The notes beneath the pieces were generated by a model, which did no database searches, was not told where the DNA came from, and worked only from the letters and a program-made list of their open reading frames with translations. From an uncultured Bacilli bacterium (GTDB lineage Bacteria; Bacillota_I; Bacilli_A; RF39; UBA660), in assembly GCA_944332635.1 (NCBI GenBank), contig CALVKI010000016.1, forward strand, positions 1-59,905: a DNA stretch of 59,905 bases, read 5' to 3'. The position numbers and the translations under genes were made by a program. Of the stretch, positions 10,549-27,087 are shown one piece after another (the first letter of the stretch is position 1; the number at the start of each line of letters is the position of its first letter).

Positions 10549-10809
10549 TTACATAACATTTTTCATCTTAGTTAATCTTGACTTTAAACGTGCAGCTTTA
10601 TTTTTATGAACTTTACCGCTAGTCATTGCTTTGTCAATTCTTTGAATTGCGATATTGTAATTAGTGCTAGCTGCTTCTTTATTACCAGCTTTAATTTCTT
10701 TTTCGAAATTTTTAATGGCAGTTCTCATACTAGAAACTACTAAAGTATTTACATTTGTTTTTTTCGCATTAGAACGCACTCTTTTTTTAGCACTTGCTAT
10801 ATTTGGCAT
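10549..10809 (-). CDS. rpsT: 30S ribosomal protein S20
   Basis: MPNIASAKKRVRSNAKK... is a typical S20 N-terminus. Length is 86 aa and the protein is basic. Confidence 0.95.
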   Translation of the reverse strand: MPNIASAKKRVRSNAKKTNVNTLVVSSMRTAIKNFEKEIKAGNKEAASTNYNIAIQRIDKAMTSGKVHKNKAARLKSRLTKMKNVM

Positions 10810-10910
10810 ATTTTCACCTCACTTTTATAAACATATTAATTCTATCAAATTTTTTTTCAAAAAGCAAATATTTTTTCTTTATTTGCAAATATTAAAATTA
10901 GGTGAACATT

Positions 10911-11948
10911 ATGCATACAATAGATTTAAAAAACAATGGATTTAGAACAGACTTAGTAATTGAAGAAATAGCTAGAGAAAAAAATTCGGAAATTACTATC
11001 AAAACATTAAATAAAACAAAAAATATAACAGTAGAAGAAGTAGTGATAGATAAAAGTACTAAAGGAAAATGGAACAAAAAAGAAGGTATCTATAAAACAA
11101 TTACTTTTACAGATATCACCGATAAAAATAACTTCAAACAAATAGAAGAAATTGCTATTAAAACAATGAAGGATATATTAAATGAATTAAAAATAGGAGA
11201 AGAAGCAAAAGTTCTTGTGATAGGTTTAGGAAACGAATCCTCAACTCCAGATGCATTAGGACCAAAGACAATAGACCATGTATTAGTAACGAGACATTTA
11301 TTTTCACTAGGAGATGTGGAAGAAGGGTATAGGAATGTTGCAAGTTTCAAGCCTAGTGTTACAGGAGTAACTGGAATAGAGACAAAGGATTTAATTGAGG
11401 GAATAAAAGAAAAGATACAACCGGATTTACTAATCGTAATAGATGCCTTAGCATCTAGTTCTATTGAAAGATTAAACAAGACCATTCAAATTACTTCTGC
11501 TGGGATATCTCCAGGCAGTGGAGTAGGCAATAATCGTACAGAAATTAGTAAAGATACCTTAAATATACCTGTAATTGCAATTGGAGTTCCGACTGTGGTT
11601 GATGGAGCAACAATAGTAGAAAACACTTTACAATTATTACTAAAAAAAATAAGCTATCAATTAGAAAATAAAGACAACGAAAGATTAAAACTAGTTCCAA
11701 GTACTAGTCAAAACTATCTAAATCATAAAAAAGAATTAAGTAAAGAACAAAAAGAGGATTTGCTAGGAATGGTAGGTTTATTAGATGAGCAAGAGCTAAA
11801 ATCGTTGATATTAGAAGTTTTATTACCAGTAAATTATAATATGATGGTAACACCAAAGGAAATAGACTACTTAATAGAAAAACTTAGTATATTATTAGCT
11901 AATATGATTAATAAAAGTCTACACTCACACTTCAATCCGACAAAATAA
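10911..11948 (+). CDS. gpr: Germination protease (spore protease GPR)
   Basis: IGLGNESSTPDALGPK, LVTRHLF, GVTGIETKD, ISPGSGVGNNR, IPVIAIGVPTVVD and MVTPKEID closely follow B. subtilis Gpr. The gene is divergent from rpsT, as in Bacillus. Confidence 0.9.
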   Translation: MHTIDLKNNGFRTDLVIEEIAREKNSEITIKTLNKTKNITVEEVVIDKSTKGKWNKKEGIYKTITFTDITDKNNFKQIEEIAIKTMKDILNELKIGEEAKVLVIGLGNESSTPDALGPKTIDHVLVTRHLFSLGDVEEGYRNVASFKPSVTGVTGIETKDLIEGIKEKIQPDLLIVIDALASSSIERLNKTIQITSAGISPGSGVGNNRTEISKDTLNIPVIAIGVPTVVDGATIVENTLQLLLKKISYQLENKDNERLKLVPSTSQNYLNHKKELSKEQKEDLLGMVGLLDEQELKSLILEVLLPVNYNMMVTPKEIDYLIEKLSILLANMINKSLHSHFNPTK

Positions 11949-11984
11949 GAAATAAAAAAAAGGTATAGTAAGTATGGTGATAAT

Positions 11985-12920
11985 ATGAAAAAGAGATTTT
12001 TCAAAAGACCAACTTCCAAAAAGAAAAAAGTAAAAAAATTCTTCTTTTTACTTCTTTTTATATTAGGAATCGTATTGACATATCAGTATTTAGATAATTC
12101 TAATATAAAACTAAATGATAAGGAATTAGTTGAAATATTACTATCAAATACAGAAAAAACCTCTACTTTAAAAAAAATAATAACAACACTACTCCCAACA
12201 AAAAAAGAGATGGTAAAAACACTAATTAAATCAAATTATCAAGGATTAATTATAGAAGAAAAACCACAAGAAGTACAACCCACTATTAAAAAGGATGATG
12301 AAAAGCCACTAATATATATATATAATACTCATCAAACAGAAGAATATACACCCAGTAGTTTTGTAGAATATAGCATAATGCCAACAGTTCAAATGAACAA
12401 TTATATACTAGAAGAAAAATTTGAAGAAAAAAATTATCAAACCATTGTAGAAGAAAAAAATATTAAAGAAGTATTAAATAAAAATGGTTGGAATTATGCA
12501 GGAAGTTATCAAGCAAGTCGAGTTTTTTTAGAAGAAGCAAAAAGAAATTATTCATCTTTAAAATATTTTATAGATGTTCATAGAGATAGTTTGCCAAAGG
12601 AAAGAACTACTGTAACTATAGAAAATAAGGATTATGCAACGATATTATTTATAATTGGTTTAGAAAATCCTAATTATCAAGAGAATTTAGTATTCACAGA
12701 GAAAATAAATAATAAGTTAAACGAAAAATATCCTGGACTTTCCAAGGGGATATATAAAAAAGAAGGCGCAGGAGTAAATGGCATATATAATCAAGATTTT
12801 TCACCATACACAATTTTAGTAGAAATGGGAGGGCCAGATAATAGAATAGATGAAGTACTAAATACATCTTTAGCATTTTCAGAGTGTTTTTTGGAGGTGA
12901 TAGAGGAATATGAATTATAA
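11985..12920 (+). CDS. spoIIP: Stage II sporulation protein P
   Basis: N-terminal TM helix, IYIYNTHQTEEY and FIDVHRDS motifs of the SpoIIP amidase family. It is adjacent to gpr. Confidence 0.85.
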   Translation: MKKRFFKRPTSKKKKVKKFFFLLLFILGIVLTYQYLDNSNIKLNDKELVEILLSNTEKTSTLKKIITTLLPTKKEMVKTLIKSNYQGLIIEEKPQEVQPTIKKDDEKPLIYIYNTHQTEEYTPSSFVEYSIMPTVQMNNYILEEKFEEKNYQTIVEEKNIKEVLNKNGWNYAGSYQASRVFLEEAKRNYSSLKYFIDVHRDSLPKERTTVTIENKDYATILFIIGLENPNYQENLVFTEKINNKLNEKYPGLSKGIYKKEGAGVNGIYNQDFSPYTILVEMGGPDNRIDEVLNTSLAFSECFLEVIEEYEL

Positions 12921-13233
12921 AAAAATAGGAGAGTTTATTATAATATCATTAATAGTTTTATTTTTAGGTCTATACATTAGTAACATGACAGGCTATTACA
13001 AGTACACAGAAAGTAAAAAAAATATTCTGACAGAAGAAGCAATGGAAAGATTTGAAGAAGATATAAAAGCAGGAAAAGAAATAGATGTATCTAACTATCT
13101 GAAAGAAACAAAAAACTATAACAATATTTTTTCATCTTTAGGACTAAAAGTATCGTCTTTAATTGAAAAAGGATTTAATAAAACTATGACAGGATTATTT
13201 AAAAAATTATCTCAAGCAATAAATGATAATTAA
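12910..13233 (+). CDS. YqxA-like small membrane protein (DUF3679-like)
   Basis: 107 aa with one N-terminal TM helix. It overlaps the spoIIP stop by 11 nt, and its position downstream of spoIIP matches Bacillus yqxA. Confidence 0.45.
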   Translation: MNYKKIGEFIIISLIVLFLGLYISNMTGYYKYTESKKNILTEEAMERFEEDIKAGKEIDVSNYLKETKNYNNIFSSLGLKVSSLIEKGFNKTMTGLFKKLSQAINDN

Positions 13234-13300
13234 AAAATCTTTAGAAAACATAAAAACTATGCTATACTAAAACTATAAGTATAGAGTAGGAGTTATGTAT

Positions 13301-14710
13301 ATGTATTGTAGTCATTGTGGAAGAAAAAATGATAATAATAGTAAATTTTGTTCTTCCTGTGAAAAAGAATTAATAACAGTAGAAGAAAATAATAGTTTTC
13401 TCCATAATTCTATTATAAGAAAAAGTATCAAAAAAGATGCTATGGAGAAAAATAAAGATCCATTATATTTAGGCAACATTATTATGTTTACAACAGTCAT
13501 AATAACTTTAATAGTAGTAGTGCTCAGTTTTGGTGAAAAAGCAATTGCTAGTTCAGGAGGCACAAACTATTCATTAAATCTTTCAACTAGTGGTTTTTTA
13601 AAATCATTAATAATATATATTATTTTTATGTCAGTTATTCTTTATTTCACTTTAGGTATGAACAAAATAAGCCTAGATATTAGTAGAGATAAAAAGACAA
13701 GTATTGGTAGTATGTTTAAGTATCCATTTCAAAAAATTACTATATATCTCAAAATATTAGGAATAAATACTTTAATATATCTTTTATTGGAACTGTTAAC
13801 ATACATTCCAGTTGTTGGTATTATTTTATATCTAATATTAACAATATATCTAAGCCCAATACTAGTGATGTTTATCTACATTATGATTGATAATACAAAT
13901 ATTTCCATAAGACAGGCAATAAAAAAAGCAATAAGTGTTACGAAAGGTAAAAAAGTAGCATACTATGCTTTAATATTAAGTTTTGCTGGATGGTATTTAT
14001 TAAGTATTTTTACACTTGGACTGTTAACAATTTGGATTATGCCATACATAAATGTTGCGATATCTAACTTTTATTTGTATATAACAAATGAAAAAAAATA
14101 TAAAGCAGCCCCTAAGGGAATTAGTAATGGAGCAATTATAGGAATCACTATAGGAATATATGTTCTATTTATTATTATAATAACGTTTGCTATTTTCACA
14201 TATGCTTTCATAAACGAAGTAAAAGAAGAGGTTAATAAAGATAGTGATATTATAATAGAAGATAACTATATAGATTATTTTGATAACAATATTTCAGGTA
14301 AAACAATAAACATTTCAGGATTAGATGTTTTTATTCCAGATGAATATAAAGAAATTACACTGGAAAACTACGAAAAAGCTTATATGTCAAACGAAGAAAA
14401 TATAGTGATAGGCTTAATAAATTATGATATAGGATATAATATATCTGCTAGTGATTATGCAAATACATATAAATCATCTTTTTCTAGTTCTTATTCCTGC
14501 GGCAATCTACAAGCTTCTAATATTAATCACTATAACTGGGAAACACTAGAATGTAATGGAGTGGGAGTAAATATTCAAAATTATATAGCCATACAAAATA
14601 ATAGATTATATTTACTGATAATTAGTTATGATAATAATTCATTTTCTAAAGCCGAAAGAATAATAAATCATATAGAAAAAAATTTAATGTTTTCAAACAT
14701 AGTAGCATAA
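13301..14710 (+). CDS. Zinc-ribbon plus DUF975-like polytopic membrane protein with an extra C-terminal soluble domain
   Basis: N-terminal CSHCGRKNDNNSKFCSSCEKEL zinc ribbon, about six TM helices arranged like DUF975, and a roughly 170-aa C-terminal non-membrane region. ATG at 13301 lies 8 nt after GTAGGAG. Confidence 0.55.
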   Translation: MYCSHCGRKNDNNSKFCSSCEKELITVEENNSFLHNSIIRKSIKKDAMEKNKDPLYLGNIIMFTTVIITLIVVVLSFGEKAIASSGGTNYSLNLSTSGFLKSLIIYIIFMSVILYFTLGMNKISLDISRDKKTSIGSMFKYPFQKITIYLKILGINTLIYLLLELLTYIPVVGIILYLILTIYLSPILVMFIYIMIDNTNISIRQAIKKAISVTKGKKVAYYALILSFAGWYLLSIFTLGLLTIWIMPYINVAISNFYLYITNEKKYKAAPKGISNGAIIGITIGIYVLFIIIITFAIFTYAFINEVKEEVNKDSDIIIEDNYIDYFDNNISGKTINISGLDVFIPDEYKEITLENYEKAYMSNEENIVIGLINYDIGYNISASDYANTYKSSFSSSYSCGNLQASNINHYNWETLECNGVGVNIQNYIAIQNNRLYLLIISYDNNSFSKAERIINHIEKNLMFSNIVA

Positions 14711-14723
14711 AGCTACTTTTTTA
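14701..14723 (+). terminator. Rho-independent terminator
   Basis: AGTAGC / GCTACT stem overlapping the stop codon, followed by TTTTTT. Confidence 0.5.
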
Positions 14724-14795
14724 TTTAAAAGATATTTTCAATCCATAAAAAATATGCTATACTCTTTTGTAGAATATAGAATAGGGGTGCTAGCG

Positions 14796-15590
14796 ATGCA
14801 AGAACGAGAAATTGTTGAAAAGCTAAAACTAGATATTGAGGACCAAGAGCGTTCATACAAAAAGAATTTAGAAATTATAAAAAAAGAAGACAATCTATTA
14901 AACTATATTAAAGGTATGCTAGATATTACTCAAAACAGTGTTATCAATTTTCCATATTATGATGGTAGAAACAAAGACGAAACTGAAGCTGAAAAAAACT
15001 TTAATATGATGTTAAAGTATACACTAAAAGAAGATAAAATAATTGCATCTTTTAAATCTGAAATAAAAAATCTATATTACTTAGAAAAGATAGGATATGA
15101 GCACGCAGAACAATATAAAGAAATAACAAAAAAATTAGAAGAGTATCGCGTAAAAATAGCAGAAGCATATAATGAATTAATTAAAAATGAAGCATTAAAA
15201 CAAACAACAGTCAAAAAAGAAGAAATGTTAAATAAAATAGCCATTGTAAAAGATTATTTAAAAGACCAGGTAGAAGCAGAAAATATTGACAGCTTCTACG
15301 AAGGTTTACAATATGCTCATTTATCAGAAAATGAAAAAACTTCTATTTTATTGTTTATATTTAAAAAAAATCTAATAATAGAAAAACAAAAGTTAGAAAA
15401 CTTAAGTAACGTAAGATCATGTTTACCAGAAAGAAAAATAGCAAAAGTAAAGAAAGAAAATATTGATAAAATTAAAGCTTCTGTTAAAAAATTAGAAAAT
15501 CAATTTTCAATTAAAATAACTTATCCAACAGATAAATTTCAAGTATCAAAAAGAGCAGAAAAAAATCGGTTTCTATTTGCAGAAATATAG
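14796..15590 (+). CDS. Hypothetical K/E-rich predicted coiled-coil protein (gene 1 of an unknown operon)
   Basis: Long ORF. ATG at 14796 is preceded by AGGGGTG. No TM segment or catalytic motif was recognised. Confidence 0.6.
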   Translation: MQEREIVEKLKLDIEDQERSYKKNLEIIKKEDNLLNYIKGMLDITQNSVINFPYYDGRNKDETEAEKNFNMMLKYTLKEDKIIASFKSEIKNLYYLEKIGYEHAEQYKEITKKLEEYRVKIAEAYNELIKNEALKQTTVKKEEMLNKIAIVKDYLKDQVEAENIDSFYEGLQYAHLSENEKTSILLFIFKKNLIIEKQKLENLSNVRSCLPERKIAKVKKENIDKIKASVKKLENQFSIKITYPTDKFQVSKRAEKNRFLFAEI

Positions 15591-15608
15591 ATAGAAGTAG
15601 GTGACAAT

Positions 15609-17360
15609 ATGACAGATAATTTAATTAATTTATTAAAAAGTACAATTAGTGAAAAGAAAAAAACGATAAAAGAATACAATAATCATCTAGATAAAAATCT
15701 GCCTGATAAAATAGAAATACTAAATAATATGAGAAACGACATAAATGAAATTACAAAAATAGAACTTTCAAAATTAAATGATATAGTAGATAACTTTGAG
15801 ATTACAGATAAAGAAAAAGAAACTATGAAAAAAGAGCTGGATATAATTAAAGTTTTATTGACCTTAAACCAAAAGGAAAAAACAAGTTATACCTTATCCC
15901 CTAATCAATTAGCAATCACATCTTCATTTATAGATAATTTAGAAAAATATATTGAGAGAAAAAACATAGAGCAGCAAGAACTTGATCCAGAATATAAACG
16001 TATTATAACAATAACAAACAAGTATAAGAGTTTATTATATAAAATAAAAAATCCTAATACAAATGAATTGATTACTGATGTAGATATTATTCTACAATTA
16101 TTTCAAGATAGTAATATAACAGAAGTCGAAAAACAAACGATGCTATTAATATTAATTAAATATAATCAAGAAATAATAAAAGGAAAAGAAAAAAATATCA
16201 AGATTTCAAAAGTAGCAGTTAAAGAATTAAATACTATGCTTAATCACTATGGCTATTCCTTGAATAAATTAAATGACAAATTGCAAGATAAATTAATAAA
16301 ATATGGAACCATCAAAAACATGGAAGAAGTATTATCTACAATGCAAAAACTAGATTTTCCTAAGTTTGACGAAGAAAAAGAAGGATTATTATTAACCACA
16401 TATTTAATTGCTACAACCAAAACAACTATTGAAAAAACAACAACATATGCTCAGAAGAGAGGAATAAATGTTAGAGATTTAAAAGATCTAATATGTGCCT
16501 TTATACCAAATGACTATTTATATGAGGATAAATACAAAATAGGAAGATTAGAAGATTTTCCTAAAAACATTTCTCTTTTAGTAGAACATGGAATAAGCAT
16601 TTCAACAGTTATTAGTAAAGGAAGAGACTTGTTACTAATAACAAATGATAGATTGCATAAAAACTTAGACTGGCTGGAATGTTATGGATTATATAGTAAT
16701 ATGCAAGAAAATGCATTATTAGACGATTTTATAACAGCATTAAAGTCACAAAATATTCCAGAGGTTATTGATTTATGGATTGAAAATCATTCTTTAGGCT
16801 TACAATACATCAAAAGTAATTTAAGTATCTTGACTTCTCATATATCAAATCAAGCAATTTTATTTTATAAATTATACAAATCAGAAAAAGAACGAAAAAA
16901 CGATGCATTTCGCTTGACAGTATCAAATGGTGTGAAAAAGCTGAGCTTACGTAAAGAGATGACCCACAGTAATATCGACTATCAAGGTATTCACGATAAA
17001 GAAAGTGCACTTGTTATTACACATCATCAAAAGCCAGTTTTTGCTAAAGAAAAAGATTATGAAATAGCAGCAAAACAATCTTTATATAATAAGATTTCTG
17101 ATGATATATTTGCAAGAGAAGAAATCATAAGTCTAAATCAATTCAGTGATAGCAATGAAACGTTATTATATGACATCAATGGTTTAAAGATTTCAAAATT
17201 AAAAACACTAAGAATATATGATGCACTATGTAAGAATAGTTTAGGAAATACCTTAGATGCACTACTTTATGCAATCTGCTATAACAAAATTATAACAAAA
17301 GAAGAATATGAAAAATTAGTAGTTGATATAAAACAAGCAACTGGATGGAAAGAGGTGTAA
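15609..17360 (+). CDS. Hypothetical 583-aa helical-repeat protein (gene 2 of an unknown operon)
   Basis: Long uninterrupted ORF with RBS GTAGGTGA. The central part shows mTERF-like periodicity (NISLLVEHGISISTVISKGRDLLLITNDRLHKNLDWLECYGL). Confidence 0.7.
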   Translation: MTDNLINLLKSTISEKKKTIKEYNNHLDKNLPDKIEILNNMRNDINEITKIELSKLNDIVDNFEITDKEKETMKKELDIIKVLLTLNQKEKTSYTLSPNQLAITSSFIDNLEKYIERKNIEQQELDPEYKRIITITNKYKSLLYKIKNPNTNELITDVDIILQLFQDSNITEVEKQTMLLILIKYNQEIIKGKEKNIKISKVAVKELNTMLNHYGYSLNKLNDKLQDKLIKYGTIKNMEEVLSTMQKLDFPKFDEEKEGLLLTTYLIATTKTTIEKTTTYAQKRGINVRDLKDLICAFIPNDYLYEDKYKIGRLEDFPKNISLLVEHGISISTVISKGRDLLLITNDRLHKNLDWLECYGLYSNMQENALLDDFITALKSQNIPEVIDLWIENHSLGLQYIKSNLSILTSHISNQAILFYKLYKSEKERKNDAFRLTVSNGVKKLSLRKEMTHSNIDYQGIHDKESALVITHHQKPVFAKEKDYEIAAKQSLYNKISDDIFAREEIISLNQFSDSNETLLYDINGLKISKLKTLRIYDALCKNSLGNTLDALLYAICYNKIITKEEYEKLVVDIKQATGWKEV

Positions 17361-17361
17361 C

Positions 17362-17649
17362 ATGAACTTTTTATTAGACTGTGGTATTACAAAAGATACA
17401 ATAAAAAAGCTAAAAGAAAACTATGAAGAAAGCACCTGCTTTTATTGCTTAACAAAACAAGAAAATGTAAAAGAAGTAATAGAATATCTATTATCGATTA
17501 AAATAGAAGTAATAGATAAGTTATTAATAGACCGTTTAGAATTATTTTTTATACCAAAAGAGAAGATAAAAAAGCGTTTTGAAAACTATAACTTAGAAGT
17601 TTTAGTTCAGTTAATCAATGAAGATATCAATGTTTTAAATAATGTATAA
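17362..17649 (+). CDS. Hypothetical 95-aa helical protein (gene 3 of an unknown operon)
   Basis: Its ATG lies 1 nt after the TAA of the previous gene. FLLDCGITKDTIKKL...VIEYLLSIKIEVIDKLLIDRLELFFIPKEKI resembles the repeats of gene 2. Confidence 0.6.
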   Translation: MNFLLDCGITKDTIKKLKENYEESTCFYCLTKQENVKEVIEYLLSIKIEVIDKLLIDRLELFFIPKEKIKKRFENYNLEVLVQLINEDINVLNNV

Positions 17650-17677
17650 GTAAAGATTAAATTTAATCTTTACTTTT
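17650..17677 (+). terminator. Rho-independent terminator of the three-gene operon
   Basis: Perfect 12-nt arms GTAAAGATTAAA / TTTAATCTTTAC followed by TTTT. Confidence 0.7.
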
Positions 17678-17758: not shown

Positions 17759-17783
17759 AAAAAAAGCATCTCATTTGAGATGT
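17759..17783 (-). terminator. Terminator downstream of the yidD-lipoprotein gene
   Basis: CATCTCA / TGAGATG stem with a T-run on the minus strand (AAAAAAG on plus). Confidence 0.55.
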
Positions 17784-17788
17784 TTTCT

Positions 17789-18883
17789 TTATTGATATAA
17801 TTCTTGTCTTATCAAATCAAGATTGTTATTCATGATATTGATATATGTAAGTTTATTAGTTCTATCTTCATCAGAAAGATTATTCAATTTATGAAGATTC
17901 TGCCTTTTTAAATCAGAATAAGTAGTAAGTAAATTTTTAGCAACATCATTTAAAGCCTCACCCTCAAAAGAATAAATATAACTGATATCGCCATTCTGAA
18001 TCATGCTCTCAGTATCACTAATAGTTTTAGAACTAGTATCTTTATCAATACAAATAACAGTTAATCCAAATTTTTCAAGATATTTAAGTGCAGAGTTAGC
18101 AACTACAATAGTATGAGAACTAGCATTTTCTACCGCTAATCTATAATCTGCATCGAGTTCTGAAAGCTCAACTTTCAAATCTTCATAAGCAGCATCGATA
18201 TCCTTCTTAAGATAAGTACTAGTAATATACTCATCTAATCCTAAACGAACATTTTGTGCCATCATAAGTAAAGAGGAAGAATTAAGCCATAATTCCTCGG
18301 GAGAATAATCTGTTTCTAACACATATGCAGTATCTATAATTTTTAAATTTGGGTTCAAATCGAGCAAATCAAAAGCCAAATTACTCTCTTTTTTAATTAA
18401 TCCATTATAAATAAACAAATCATATTGACTAAAATCTTTTTTCTGTTTATCACTAATTTTATATTTATCAGTATCAACTCCATCAGGATAAACAGCTGTA
18501 ATACTTGAGTGATCCCCATATAATTTTTCTGTGATATATTCATTAGGATAATTAGTAACTAAAATTTGTATATCATCCATATCATCTTGCTTACAGCCCG
18601 TTGTTGCGAAAATTGCAGTGACAAATAATATAAATAACAATAATAACTTTTTGCTCTTCATTCTTTTTCTCCTTACTTTAGGAACTGGATCATAACCAAA
18701 TTTACTAAAAGGATGGCACCTAAAAACTCTACATATTCCTAGATAAAGACCATAACAAACACCATGAGTCTCTATTGCTTCTATCATGTAATTAGAGCAA
18801 GTTGGAGTAAATCTACAATAGTTATGGAATTTTCCAGGTATTTTTTGGTACAAATGTATAAGGTTAATCAAAATCCTTTTCAT
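17789..18883 (-). CDS. yidD: YidD (membrane protein insertion efficiency factor) reading in frame into a ZnuA/TroA-like lipoprotein
   Basis: The N-terminal 70 aa, LIHLYQKIPGKFHNYCRFTPTCSNYMIEAIETHG...RCHPFSKFGYDPVP, is a canonical YidD. With no stop, it continues into MKSKKLLLLFILFVTAIFATTGC (lipobox; internal ATG at 18661) and a cluster A-I substrate-binding fold. Confidence 0.7.
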   Translation of the reverse strand: MKRILINLIHLYQKIPGKFHNYCRFTPTCSNYMIEAIETHGVCYGLYLGICRVFRCHPFSKFGYDPVPKVRRKRMKSKKLLLLFILFVTAIFATTGCKQDDMDDIQILVTNYPNEYITEKLYGDHSSITAVYPDGVDTDKYKISDKQKKDFSQYDLFIYNGLIKKESNLAFDLLDLNPNLKIIDTAYVLETDYSPEELWLNSSSLLMMAQNVRLGLDEYITSTYLKKDIDAAYEDLKVELSELDADYRLAVENASSHTIVVANSALKYLEKFGLTVICIDKDTSSKTISDTESMIQNGDISYIYSFEGEALNDVAKNLLTTYSDLKRQNLHKLNNLSDEDRTNKLTYINIMNNNLDLIRQELYQ

Positions 18884-18994
18884 ATCATCACCCAGTACCT
18901 TTATTACATATTTCATTTTACTATAAACAGTATAAAATATCAATTATAAGTATACTAATTTTTAGTTTTTTGTTATACTTATAATGGTGATTAT

Positions 18995-26196: not shown

Positions 26197-27012
26197 TTAC
26201 ACTATTCTAGTAATAGAAACAGCAGCTGAATATAGATCATTAGGTACTAAACTAATATCAAGTCCTGAAGTATTAATAAAACGGTAACTTGCTCCAGGCA
26301 TAGCCTCGAAAATGGCATTACCATTAATTGTTCCTGTATCACAAGATGTAAGTTTATTATGTGTAGATGAATGAGCAATTAAAACATCATTAGGCCAGAA
26401 TTGATGAAGCTCGATACCTAAAGCTCGAGGTTCACAACTGACATTCTTATCAGTGTGTCGAACATTAATCCACCAATGTATAATATAAATACCCTTTTCT
26501 GGAATAGAGAAGTCACCTGTTGCTGGATTGTAAGATATTTTATTAGAAATATTAGTAGTTTGAAATAAAACTGGTTGTTGGTTTGCAACAGTAGAATCTG
26601 TCTCATCGTGTACCATTGCATAACTATCTAAAGGAATAGCAGGGGTACCAGCAGGACCAGTGGGACCTATTGCTCCAGTAGCTCCAGTAGGGCCAGTTAC
26701 ACCTTGAGGACCGGTTGCACCAGTAGCTCCAGTAGGACCAGTTACACCCTGAGTTCCTGTTGCACCTGTAGGCCCAGTAGCTCCTCTAGGTCCAGTAGGA
26801 CCTTGAATTCCTGTATCACCCGTTCTACCTTGAGGTCCTGTTGCTCCAGTCGCACCTGTATCTCCACAGCATCCAGCAGGACCAGTGGGACCAGTTGGTC
26901 CAGTAGGACCTTGTCTGTTTTTACATAGGCAATCTATCACCCGGCAAAGACATTCATCATTACAACATTCATCAGTAGATAAAATATCATTTAATTCATT
27001 ATTATTTTCCAT
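26197..27012 (-). CDS. Collagen-like triple-helix repeat protein with a BclA-like C-terminal globular domain (exosporium-type glycoprotein)
   Basis: About 30 uninterrupted GXY triplets ([13 protein letters not shown]...[16 protein letters not shown]), then a 150-aa beta-rich C-terminal domain. ATG at 27012 is preceded by AGGAGGAAAT, so the track start at 27081 is unlikely. Confidence 0.85.
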
Positions 27013-27087
27013 ATTTCCTCCTTTCATAATATCATATGAAGTTAAAAAAAAAAGAAATGAGCTAATAACTAGATAAAACAAAAAATA

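Follow-up and report, generated by a model that had tools for sequence, protein, structure and literature searches.

Here, we have analysed a three-gene operon of an uncultured Bacilli bacterium (GTDB RF39; UBA660) and suggest that it encodes a non-enzymatic cytoplasmic hetero-oligomer with mTERF-like helical repeats that would act as an adaptor, a reading to which we give a probability of about 40%. The operon lies in a 59,905-nucleotide stretch of contig CALVKI010000016.1 (assembly GCA_944332635.1, positions 1 to 59,905 of the forward strand), hereafter the window, and consists of three same-strand open reading frames, ORF1, ORF2 and ORF3, of 264, 583 and 95 amino acids (aa). A widespread, undescribed module, X-Y-Z, which is found with or without a further gene, W, is present here in a local and shortened form, with ORF1, ORF2 and ORF3 as X, Y and Z.

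Relationships among the three proteins

A preliminary description of the operon had called its proteins unrecognisable. No curated family takes them in: searches of Pfam, NCBIfam, PHROGs, PADLOC and PDB sequences gave no significant match for ORF1, ORF2 or ORF3, as that description had anticipated, and as protein families the trio is undescribed. What had escaped notice is that the three proteins are related to one another and share a weak, repeated mTERF-like signal.

Profile comparisons connect all three proteins. The ORF1 family (residues 3-202) aligned with residues 2-196 of ORF2 (hhalign probability 90.7%, E 1.2e-6) and with the N-terminus of the long X proteins found elsewhere (hhalign 99.3%, E 1e-20), and the long X N-terminus in turn aligned with that of ORF2 (hhalign 82.6%, E 9.7e-6). 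The ORF3 family (residues 2-87) aligned with residues 279-369 of ORF2 (hhalign 85.6%, E 5.5e-6), a match that needed deeper alignments, small ones giving nothing; ORF3 duplicates this piece of the ORF2 repeat region as a free-standing protein. A comparison of the ORF2 family with itself revealed an internal duplication in the N-domain and, over residues 204-398, six or more degenerate units of the form h..h...L...G-h.

ORF1 is made up of an N-terminal helical domain of ~200 aa and a tail with conserved IKITYP and RFLF motifs, which in a MAFFT alignment coincide with the pair of strand-like motifs conserved in the C-terminal module of long X proteins. Since its profile matches both the long X N-terminus and the N-domain of ORF2, we take ORF1 to be a shortened X. 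By homology it goes with a helical-bundle-like domain, and not with a long coiled coil. The long heptad-like stretches that had been described in ORF1 were not borne out: heptad periodicity scored no better than in shuffled controls for ORF1, ORF2 and ORF3 alike.

The ORF2 family is large. There are 213 homologues in a collection of 5.8 billion proteins, all without a Pfam domain and named only "hypothetical protein", and a profile search of 1.84 billion cluster representatives (E <= 0.001) defined a family of 393 clusters at 50% identity, mostly of 550-640 aa. No Pfam domain was detected in any of 80 distant ORF2 relatives or in unusually long or short members, and the scanned long X homologues likewise fall outside all curated families. 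The sole PADLOC match was that of ORF1 to Ppl (14.7 bits, E 0.0015) over a low-complexity helical stretch, with none for ORF2 or ORF3. When the alignments of the ORF2 and ORF3 families were run as profiles against PDB sequences, they returned only coiled-coil noise and a chance match to uL23, and the ORF2 model had no match among viral structures (Foldseek, BFVD).

The composition and motif content of the proteins were as previously stated. Lysine, glutamate, asparagine and isoleucine together make up 40-47% of the residues; Walker A (P-loop), HExxH, DEAD and PD-(D/E)xK motifs are absent from all three proteins; and none of them contains a hydrophobic 19-mer above 1.2 on the Kyte-Doolittle scale, so neither a transmembrane segment nor a signal peptide is expected.

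Several known classes of protein were considered and rejected. Coiled-coil or SMC-like proteins are ruled out by heptad scores no better than those of shuffles and by the missing Walker A motif. LXG polymorphic toxins of the type VII secretion system are ruled out by the lack of an LXG Pfam match and by the C-terminal domain of ORF2, which is its most conserved part and not the most variable; an EssC-like gene was found in none of the sampled module contexts. DnaD/DnaB-type loaders and the known anti-phage defence systems of PADLOC-DB are likewise ruled out, their defining domains being absent.

Structure models and the mTERF signal

AlphaFold2 models cover ORF2 and ORF3 and are almost all helical, in agreement with the alpha-helical character proposed before. 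The ORF2 model (mean predicted local distance difference test, pLDDT, 83.8) has long helices at residues 1-196 (pLDDT 60-88), short-helix repeats at residues 204-427 (~90) and, at residues 430-583, an alpha/beta domain with two short beta-hairpins. The ORF3 model (pLDDT 94.9) has nine helices that form three three-helix units of ~31 residues each.

When the ORF2 model was compared with the PDB by Foldseek, human mTERF1 ranked first (3n6s_A, E 0.11, probability 0.89) and MTERF4 second (4fp9_B, E 0.41, probability 0.94), with every other match at a probability of 0.04 or less. The single non-trivial match of the ORF3 model was again MTERF4 (7o9k_A2, E 0.99, TM-score 0.47). Moreover, 7 of 45 ORF3 relatives matched the Pfam mTERF family (PF02536) at 13-18 bits (best E 0.0013, 18.1 bits), below its gathering score of 23.1 bits. 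The mTERF motif, as given in PMC11417379, has a proline at position 8, and its positions 11, 18 and 25 are hydrophobic. Its turn appears as R-P-E-[LI]-F in some ORF3 relatives (L019, L020 and P0351) and as R-L-E-L-F in ORF3 of the window, and the hydrophobic spacing is present but degenerate in the ORF3 family.

The two Foldseek results and the Pfam matches, three independent lines that are weak but concordant, make an mTERF-like repeat fold likely; true homology to mTERF proteins is much less so. The nearest kind is the mTERF-type helical-repeat adaptor. The trio seems to share with it an all-helical solenoid of degenerate units of ~30-40 residues, each a short three-helix motif with an L...G-type turn, and the lack of a catalytic site; mTERF proteins are the top structural neighbours of both models, sub-threshold Pfam matches recur in the ORF3 family, and MTERF4 is one subunit of a hetero-oligomer (entry descriptions of 4fp9 and 7o9k), as is proposed here for the trio. 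The trio differs from the eukaryotic proteins in that it is bacterial, operon-encoded, multi-domain and split over three genes and polypeptides. It also has two further domains, a shared N-terminal one and a C-terminal alpha/beta one, is acidic, lacks a conserved basic stripe along the repeats and scores below every family threshold.

The only published bacterial precedent that we found is pTERF, a group of DNA-binding tandem-repeat proteins from metagenome-assembled genomes (MAGs) of Bacillota (PMC11417379). Like the trio, these are bacterial and have three-helix units that were likened to mTERF motifs, at very low identity to eukaryotic mTERFs. By its published description (PMC11417379), however, each pTERF is a single protein that has 3-11 regular tandem repeats and binds specific DNA sequences with nanomolar affinity, whereas the repeats of the trio are degenerate, are seen only as low-confidence off-diagonal profile alignments, and form part of a multi-domain protein that is accompanied by two partner genes.

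A number of observations weigh against an mTERF-like adaptor. All links to mTERF lie below conventional significance (Foldseek E 0.1-1, TM-score 0.21-0.49, Pfam 13-18 bits); PF02536 matched none of the three window proteins even at E <= 1 and none of 80 ORF2 relatives, and profile searches of PDB sequences gave no mTERF. The families are acidic, with a median isoelectric point of 4.6 for Z, 5.4 for Y and 5.0 for long X, which argues against a classic DNA-binding groove. The only ORF2-family columns with at least 70% lysine or arginine are K530, K532 and R535, all in the C-domain and outside the repeats; judged by these columns, no basic stripe runs along the repeats, unlike in DNA- or RNA-binding mTERFs. 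No Y-Z or X-Y fusion protein was found among 149 representatives, and one reduced locus, L048, retains X and the N-domain of Y alone, which suggests that the repeats can be lost. As some of the defining features tested are not found in the trio, its membership of the mTERF family is not established.

A putative adaptor complex

From the relationships described above, we infer that the three proteins form a complex; its physical assembly, an mTERF-type mode of action and the existence of a ligand belong to the same proposal. ORF1 (X) and ORF2 (Y) would pair via their paralogous N-terminal helical domains of ~195 residues. Within the ORF2 model, pLDDT is lowest in the N-domain, as would fit a domain that requires a partner. 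ORF2 would carry the solenoid, with at least six degenerate mTERF-like helix-turn repeats, and the conserved alpha/beta C-terminal domain, and its invariant polar residues (D388/E392 with S529/K532/R535) may form a functional or latch site. ORF3 (Z), the presumed detached three-repeat copy, could stack onto the ORF2 solenoid and extend it, or compete for its ligand. By analogy with mTERF proteins, the complex would bind a nucleic acid, a ribonucleoprotein or an extended protein partner and serve there as an adaptor or roadblock, and not as an enzyme. MTERF4 binds rRNA and recruits NSUN4.

The X-Y-Z module in other lineages

Wherever the contig continues, a member of the ORF2 family is followed directly by an ORF3-like gene, and an X gene lies on its 5' side. 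The module occupies several unrelated chromosomal sites. With protein lengths in brackets, the order is X(572)-Y(575)-Z(98)-uvrB-uvrA-lgt-whiA in L030 and thyA-folA-tmk-532-W(194)-X(675)-Y(588)-Z(96) in L039; in L032-L035 the Y-Z pair adjoins ftsH in a tilS-ftsH context; and L036 has spoIIP-yqxA-X(619)-Y(605)-Z(95), a site like that of the window with a long X. W, a protein of 177-197 aa that sometimes precedes X-Y-Z, is unrelated to X, Y or Z. The long X proteins (545-675 aa) share a beta-strand-rich C-terminal module with the pattern R-[IV]-x-Y ... G-Y-G ... K-D, and one of seven gave a weak, sub-threshold match to ParE_toxin (E 0.0014).

Two of the sampled module contexts look mobile. In three contigs, W-X-Y-Z has as neighbours, no more than a few kb away, a DEAD/ResIII/SNF2 helicase gene (1345-1563 aa; L024:1-787, L032:13031-17068 and L033:13032-17723) and, after it, an 88-aa gene. 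Since the helicase and the 88-aa gene occur on different sides of the module and are missing in the otherwise syntenic L034, they look like a mobile island. In L037, an 874-aa Y homologue (L037:4256-6880), in which a long and highly acidic stretch of low complexity is inserted between N-domain and repeats, sits among XRE helix-turn-helix, DUF4417, PBECR1 and methyltransferase genes.

Conservation at the home locus

The trio is conserved in a pattern far beyond chance. A scan with one genome per species found 23 loci, and all species loci of sufficient length on each side had the order spoIIP-yqxA-(DUF975)-ORF1-ORF2-ORF3-<yidD/znuA-rnc-rnj, as did the metagenome contigs L042, L045, L047, L050 and L052. 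Co-occurrence and adjacency of the three genes, which had been proposed as a check, could be judged in 20 loci with a complete or near-complete ORF2: gene order was kept in all 20, with junctions that overlap (ATGA) or are 1-30 nucleotides (nt) apart. The -35 element TTTTCA, the extended -10 element TATGcTATACT, the leader and the ATAGGGGTGCTAG ribosome-binding site (RBS) block were kept in 14 species, with the surrounding intergenic DNA diverged, and about 15 of 19 related loci have a hairpin with a T-run 3' of the ORF3 stop, though the hairpin sequence differs. This agrees with the earlier proposal of a single autonomous transcription unit.

The trio evolves fast, much faster than its neighbours. 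In the deepest relatives, identity is 81% for RNase III, 80% for RNase J and ~50% for SpoIIP, compared with 42-48% for ORF3 and 28-33% for ORF2; ORF1 is at most 28% identical or cannot be detected by BLAST. Contigs with yidD-rnc-rnj in which RNase III identity is ~71% or less have no trio at that site, so the location of the module is lineage-specific. In the metagenome contig L048, all that is left of the module is an X-like gene of 464 aa and, of Y, a 197-aa remnant of the N-domain, without repeats and without Z (L048:3322-5313), while the spoIIP-yqxA ... yidD-rnc synteny around it is kept; this is either decay or an assembly problem.

No relatives were found in 50,697 INPHARED phage records or 72,556 PLSDB plasmids (tblastn with three different Y proteins), nor in IMG/VR viral contigs scanned with a close alignment. 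Together with the stable flanking synteny, this marks the genes in this clade as vertically inherited, chromosomal and not mobile cargo, in agreement with the preliminary description. Its further supposition of a lineage-specific complex holds less well, the ORF2 family comprising 393 clusters at several chromosomal positions.

Alternative roles of the operon

The rapid divergence of ORF1 and ORF2 beside well-conserved RNase III and RNase J could also point to a conflict module, for anti-phage defence, anti-defence or a toxin-antitoxin-like function, in which Y and Z would be sensor and regulator and long X a RelE/ParE-like effector, a fold known from type II toxin-antitoxin systems and the PBECR-type domains of mobile elements; the window version with its truncated X would then be a domesticated or decaying copy. 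Such a role would fit a discrete module at many unrelated sites, the copies beside the large helicase (L024, L032 and L033), the gene neighbourhood in L037, the apparent decay in L048, and the beta-strand-rich C-terminal module found in all long X proteins, one of which gave the ParE_toxin match. However, that match is one sub-threshold signal among seven proteins, no RelE/ParE match was obtained for any window protein, and PADLOC gave no meaningful match. ORF1 of the window lacks the beta-strand module, except for two short strand-like motifs, and with it the putative effector domain, yet the trio has long been kept intact. There is no antitoxin-like DNA-binding partner, and the genes are far larger than those of toxin-antitoxin pairs. 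Moreover, relatives are absent from the phage, plasmid and viral collections, the position among housekeeping genes is fixed in species down to 30% ORF2 identity, and a genome whose size is put at ~1.4 Mb (PMC8035907) has kept the 2.9-kb operon. We consider a conflict role unlikely.

ORF2 could instead be an enzyme of a new type that uses S529-x-x-K532 with E392, Y400, Y521 and R535, with ORF1 and ORF3 as accessory subunits. E392, S529 and K532 are strictly invariant in 117 sequences with an average identity of ~20%, and Y359, D388, Y400, Y521 and R535 are conserved at 92% or more; the conserved residues of the central domain are N320, Y359, D388, E392 and Y400. In the model, S529 is found at a strand-to-helix junction, where catalytic serines often sit. 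The conserved polar residues could form a ligand or catalytic site or, equally, a helix cap with an interdomain salt-bridge latch, as the pattern also fits S529 as a helix N-cap and D388/E392 paired with K532/R535. As no known catalytic motif, fold match, cofactor-binding signature or conserved substrate-related neighbouring gene was found, we regard an enzyme as improbable.

A set of sporulation-specific structural or morphogenetic proteins co-regulated with gpr-spoIIP-yqxA would suit the place of the operon directly 3' of these genes in the window and all close relatives, the collagen-like BclA-type protein encoded in the same genome, which makes spore formation plausible, and the general profile of spore morphogenetic proteins, which are often lineage-specific, fast-evolving and missing from family databases, but it is the least probable of the alternatives, since the operon is served by a promoter of its own, sigma-A-like and with an extended -10 box, and no sigma-E/F/G/K-type promoter was seen (judged by eye only), a terminator and, in many genomes, the optional DUF975 gene separate it from yqxA, and W-X-Y-Z modules elsewhere adjoin tilS-ftsH, uvrBA or thyA-folA-tmk with no sporulation gene nearby. 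Both the conflict and the sporulation roles are weaker than the mTERF-like adaptor as explanations of the operon.

Organization of the operon and its surroundings

The features of the operon are listed in Table 1. The three genes are as tightly packed as first described: the 18-nt gap between ORF1 and ORF2 contains AGGTGA, and ORF2 and ORF3 are joined as TAA-C-ATG. In the mechanical list of ORFs, ORF1 starts at ATG 14754 (278 aa). That codon falls within the extended -10 box, and both the RBS and the homologue alignment, which begins at the methionine encoded by ATG 14796, point to the later start, so 264 aa is the better call.

The bracketing terminator hairpins proposed earlier were both recovered. 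The upstream one (14701-14717 with its T-run) has a folding energy of -6.9 kcal/mol (z = -2.7), and the hairpin after ORF3 (17650-17673 with TTTT) one of -11.1 kcal/mol (z = -5.9); the latter was missed by the terminator scan because it is too A+T-rich for the G+C rule of the scan. The bidirectional terminator beyond it reaches -13.2 kcal/mol (z = -4.5). From these boundaries and the promoter, which scored 9/12 with TG in the promoter scan, the three genes look like one autonomous transcription unit. A near-palindrome covers the -10 box and the predicted transcription start. Most relatives have it as TATACTCTATTATAGAATATA at the same position (L001-L016), with 9 of 10 arm positions complementary, and it is not enriched elsewhere in the window; tight regulation, possibly autoregulation, is a speculation that it invites. 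No Rfam family was found in or near the operon.

Table 1. Positions of operon features and ORF2 domains in the window, and of example long X genes in other contigs
Feature	Position	Strand	Details
Intrinsic terminator of upstream DUF975 gene, 5' boundary of the unit	14701..14723	+	stem AGTAGC/GCTACT and T-run (scan)
Sigma-A-type promoter	14735..14763	+	-35 TTTTCA (14735-14740), 17-nt spacer, extended -10 TGcTATACT (14755-14763)
Near-palindrome TATACTCTTTTGTAGAATATA, candidate operator	14758..14778	+	overlaps -10 box and predicted transcription start
RBS AGGGGTG	14783..14789	+	6 nt 5' of ORF1 ATG 14796
ORF1 (X subunit, short form)	14796..15590	+	264 aa
ORF2 (Y subunit, defining protein of the module)	15609..17360	+	583 aa
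ORF2 N-terminal helical domain (aa 2-196), common to ORF1/X	15612..16196	+	model and hhalign
ORF2 central mTERF-like domain (aa 204-427)	16218..16889	+	model, Foldseek, internal repeat alignment
ORF2 C-terminal alpha/beta domain (aa 430-583), most conserved part	16896..17357	+	model; conservation in 117 sequences
ORF3 (Z subunit)	17362..17649	+	95 aa
Terminator hairpin, 3' boundary of the unit	17650..17677	+	12-bp A+T-rich stem and TTTT directly 3' of ORF3 stop
Bidirectional terminator between operon and convergent yidD-znuA gene	17763..17786	.	scan matches on both strands
Long X gene, example	L024:4134-6008
Long X gene, example	L032:6324-8207
Long X gene, example	L034:6358-8229
Long X gene, example	L036:5809-7668

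On the 5' side, the operon is preceded by tkt, uvrC, mutL, miaA, gpr (Peptidase_A25), spoIIP, a yqxA-like gene of 107 aa and a DUF975 membrane protein gene, and on the 3' side it is followed by a convergent YidD-ZnuA fusion on the minus strand, rnc and rnj. The placement between gpr-spoIIP-yqxA and yidD/rnc given in the preliminary description is right, with the DUF975 gene left out of its account. This gene (13295-14710, +) encodes a multi-pass membrane protein with a zinc ribbon and is variably present, being missing in L005, L007-L009, L011, L014, L016 and deeper relatives. The fusion (17789-18943, -) is one 384-aa ORF in which a YidD domain (residues 22-87) is joined to a ZnuA-type solute-binding lipoprotein (residues 127-380); in the deeper relatives L016-L023 the two parts match separate segments or genes. 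A 93-aa ORF with a GTG start (10664-10945, +) lies 5' of gpr and overlaps it, without a Pfam match at E <= 1e-5. In L036, the gene that precedes gpr encodes ribosomal protein S20 on the opposite strand, so the 93-aa ORF may be spurious.

The G+C content of the region is uniform at 23-31%, so that nothing points to foreign DNA. Across the window, G+C spikes only once (0.389), in a 294-aa ORF (26197-27081, -). With its long collagen-like repeat of G-P-T / G-x-T triplets and a C-terminal domain that is globular, the encoded protein recalls the BclA-type proteins of the exosporium. RF39 is a group with reduced genomes that is supposed to be Mollicutes-like. The presence of gpr (Peptidase_A25, E 1e-100), spoIIP (E 5e-55) and the yqxA-like gene at 10902-13233 of the window suggests that, despite this kinship, spore formation persists in the lineage. 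The relatives that bear a name are Candidatus Faecimonas and MAGs labelled "uncultured Bacilli/Tenericutes". Candidatus Faecimonas corresponds to GTDB genus CAG-877 of order RF39, with genomes of ~1.4 Mb and ~28% G+C (PMC8035907).

Significance

This study gives the first definition of the X-Y-Z module, with or without W, and of its internal logic, in which two shared domains are spread over three proteins, and it offers a testable hypothesis, that of an mTERF-like adaptor complex, for a family whose 393 sequence clusters carry no annotation at all. RF39-type Bacilli are common uncultured gut bacteria, and an operon of 2.9 kb that is kept in genomes of ~1.4 Mb likely does something important. 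The function could nevertheless prove mundane, which calls for restraint in judging the significance. Should the mTERF link be false, three sizeable protein families would still merit entries in databases; should it be true, the module would be a second, and much larger, prokaryotic group of a family long regarded as eukaryote-specific.

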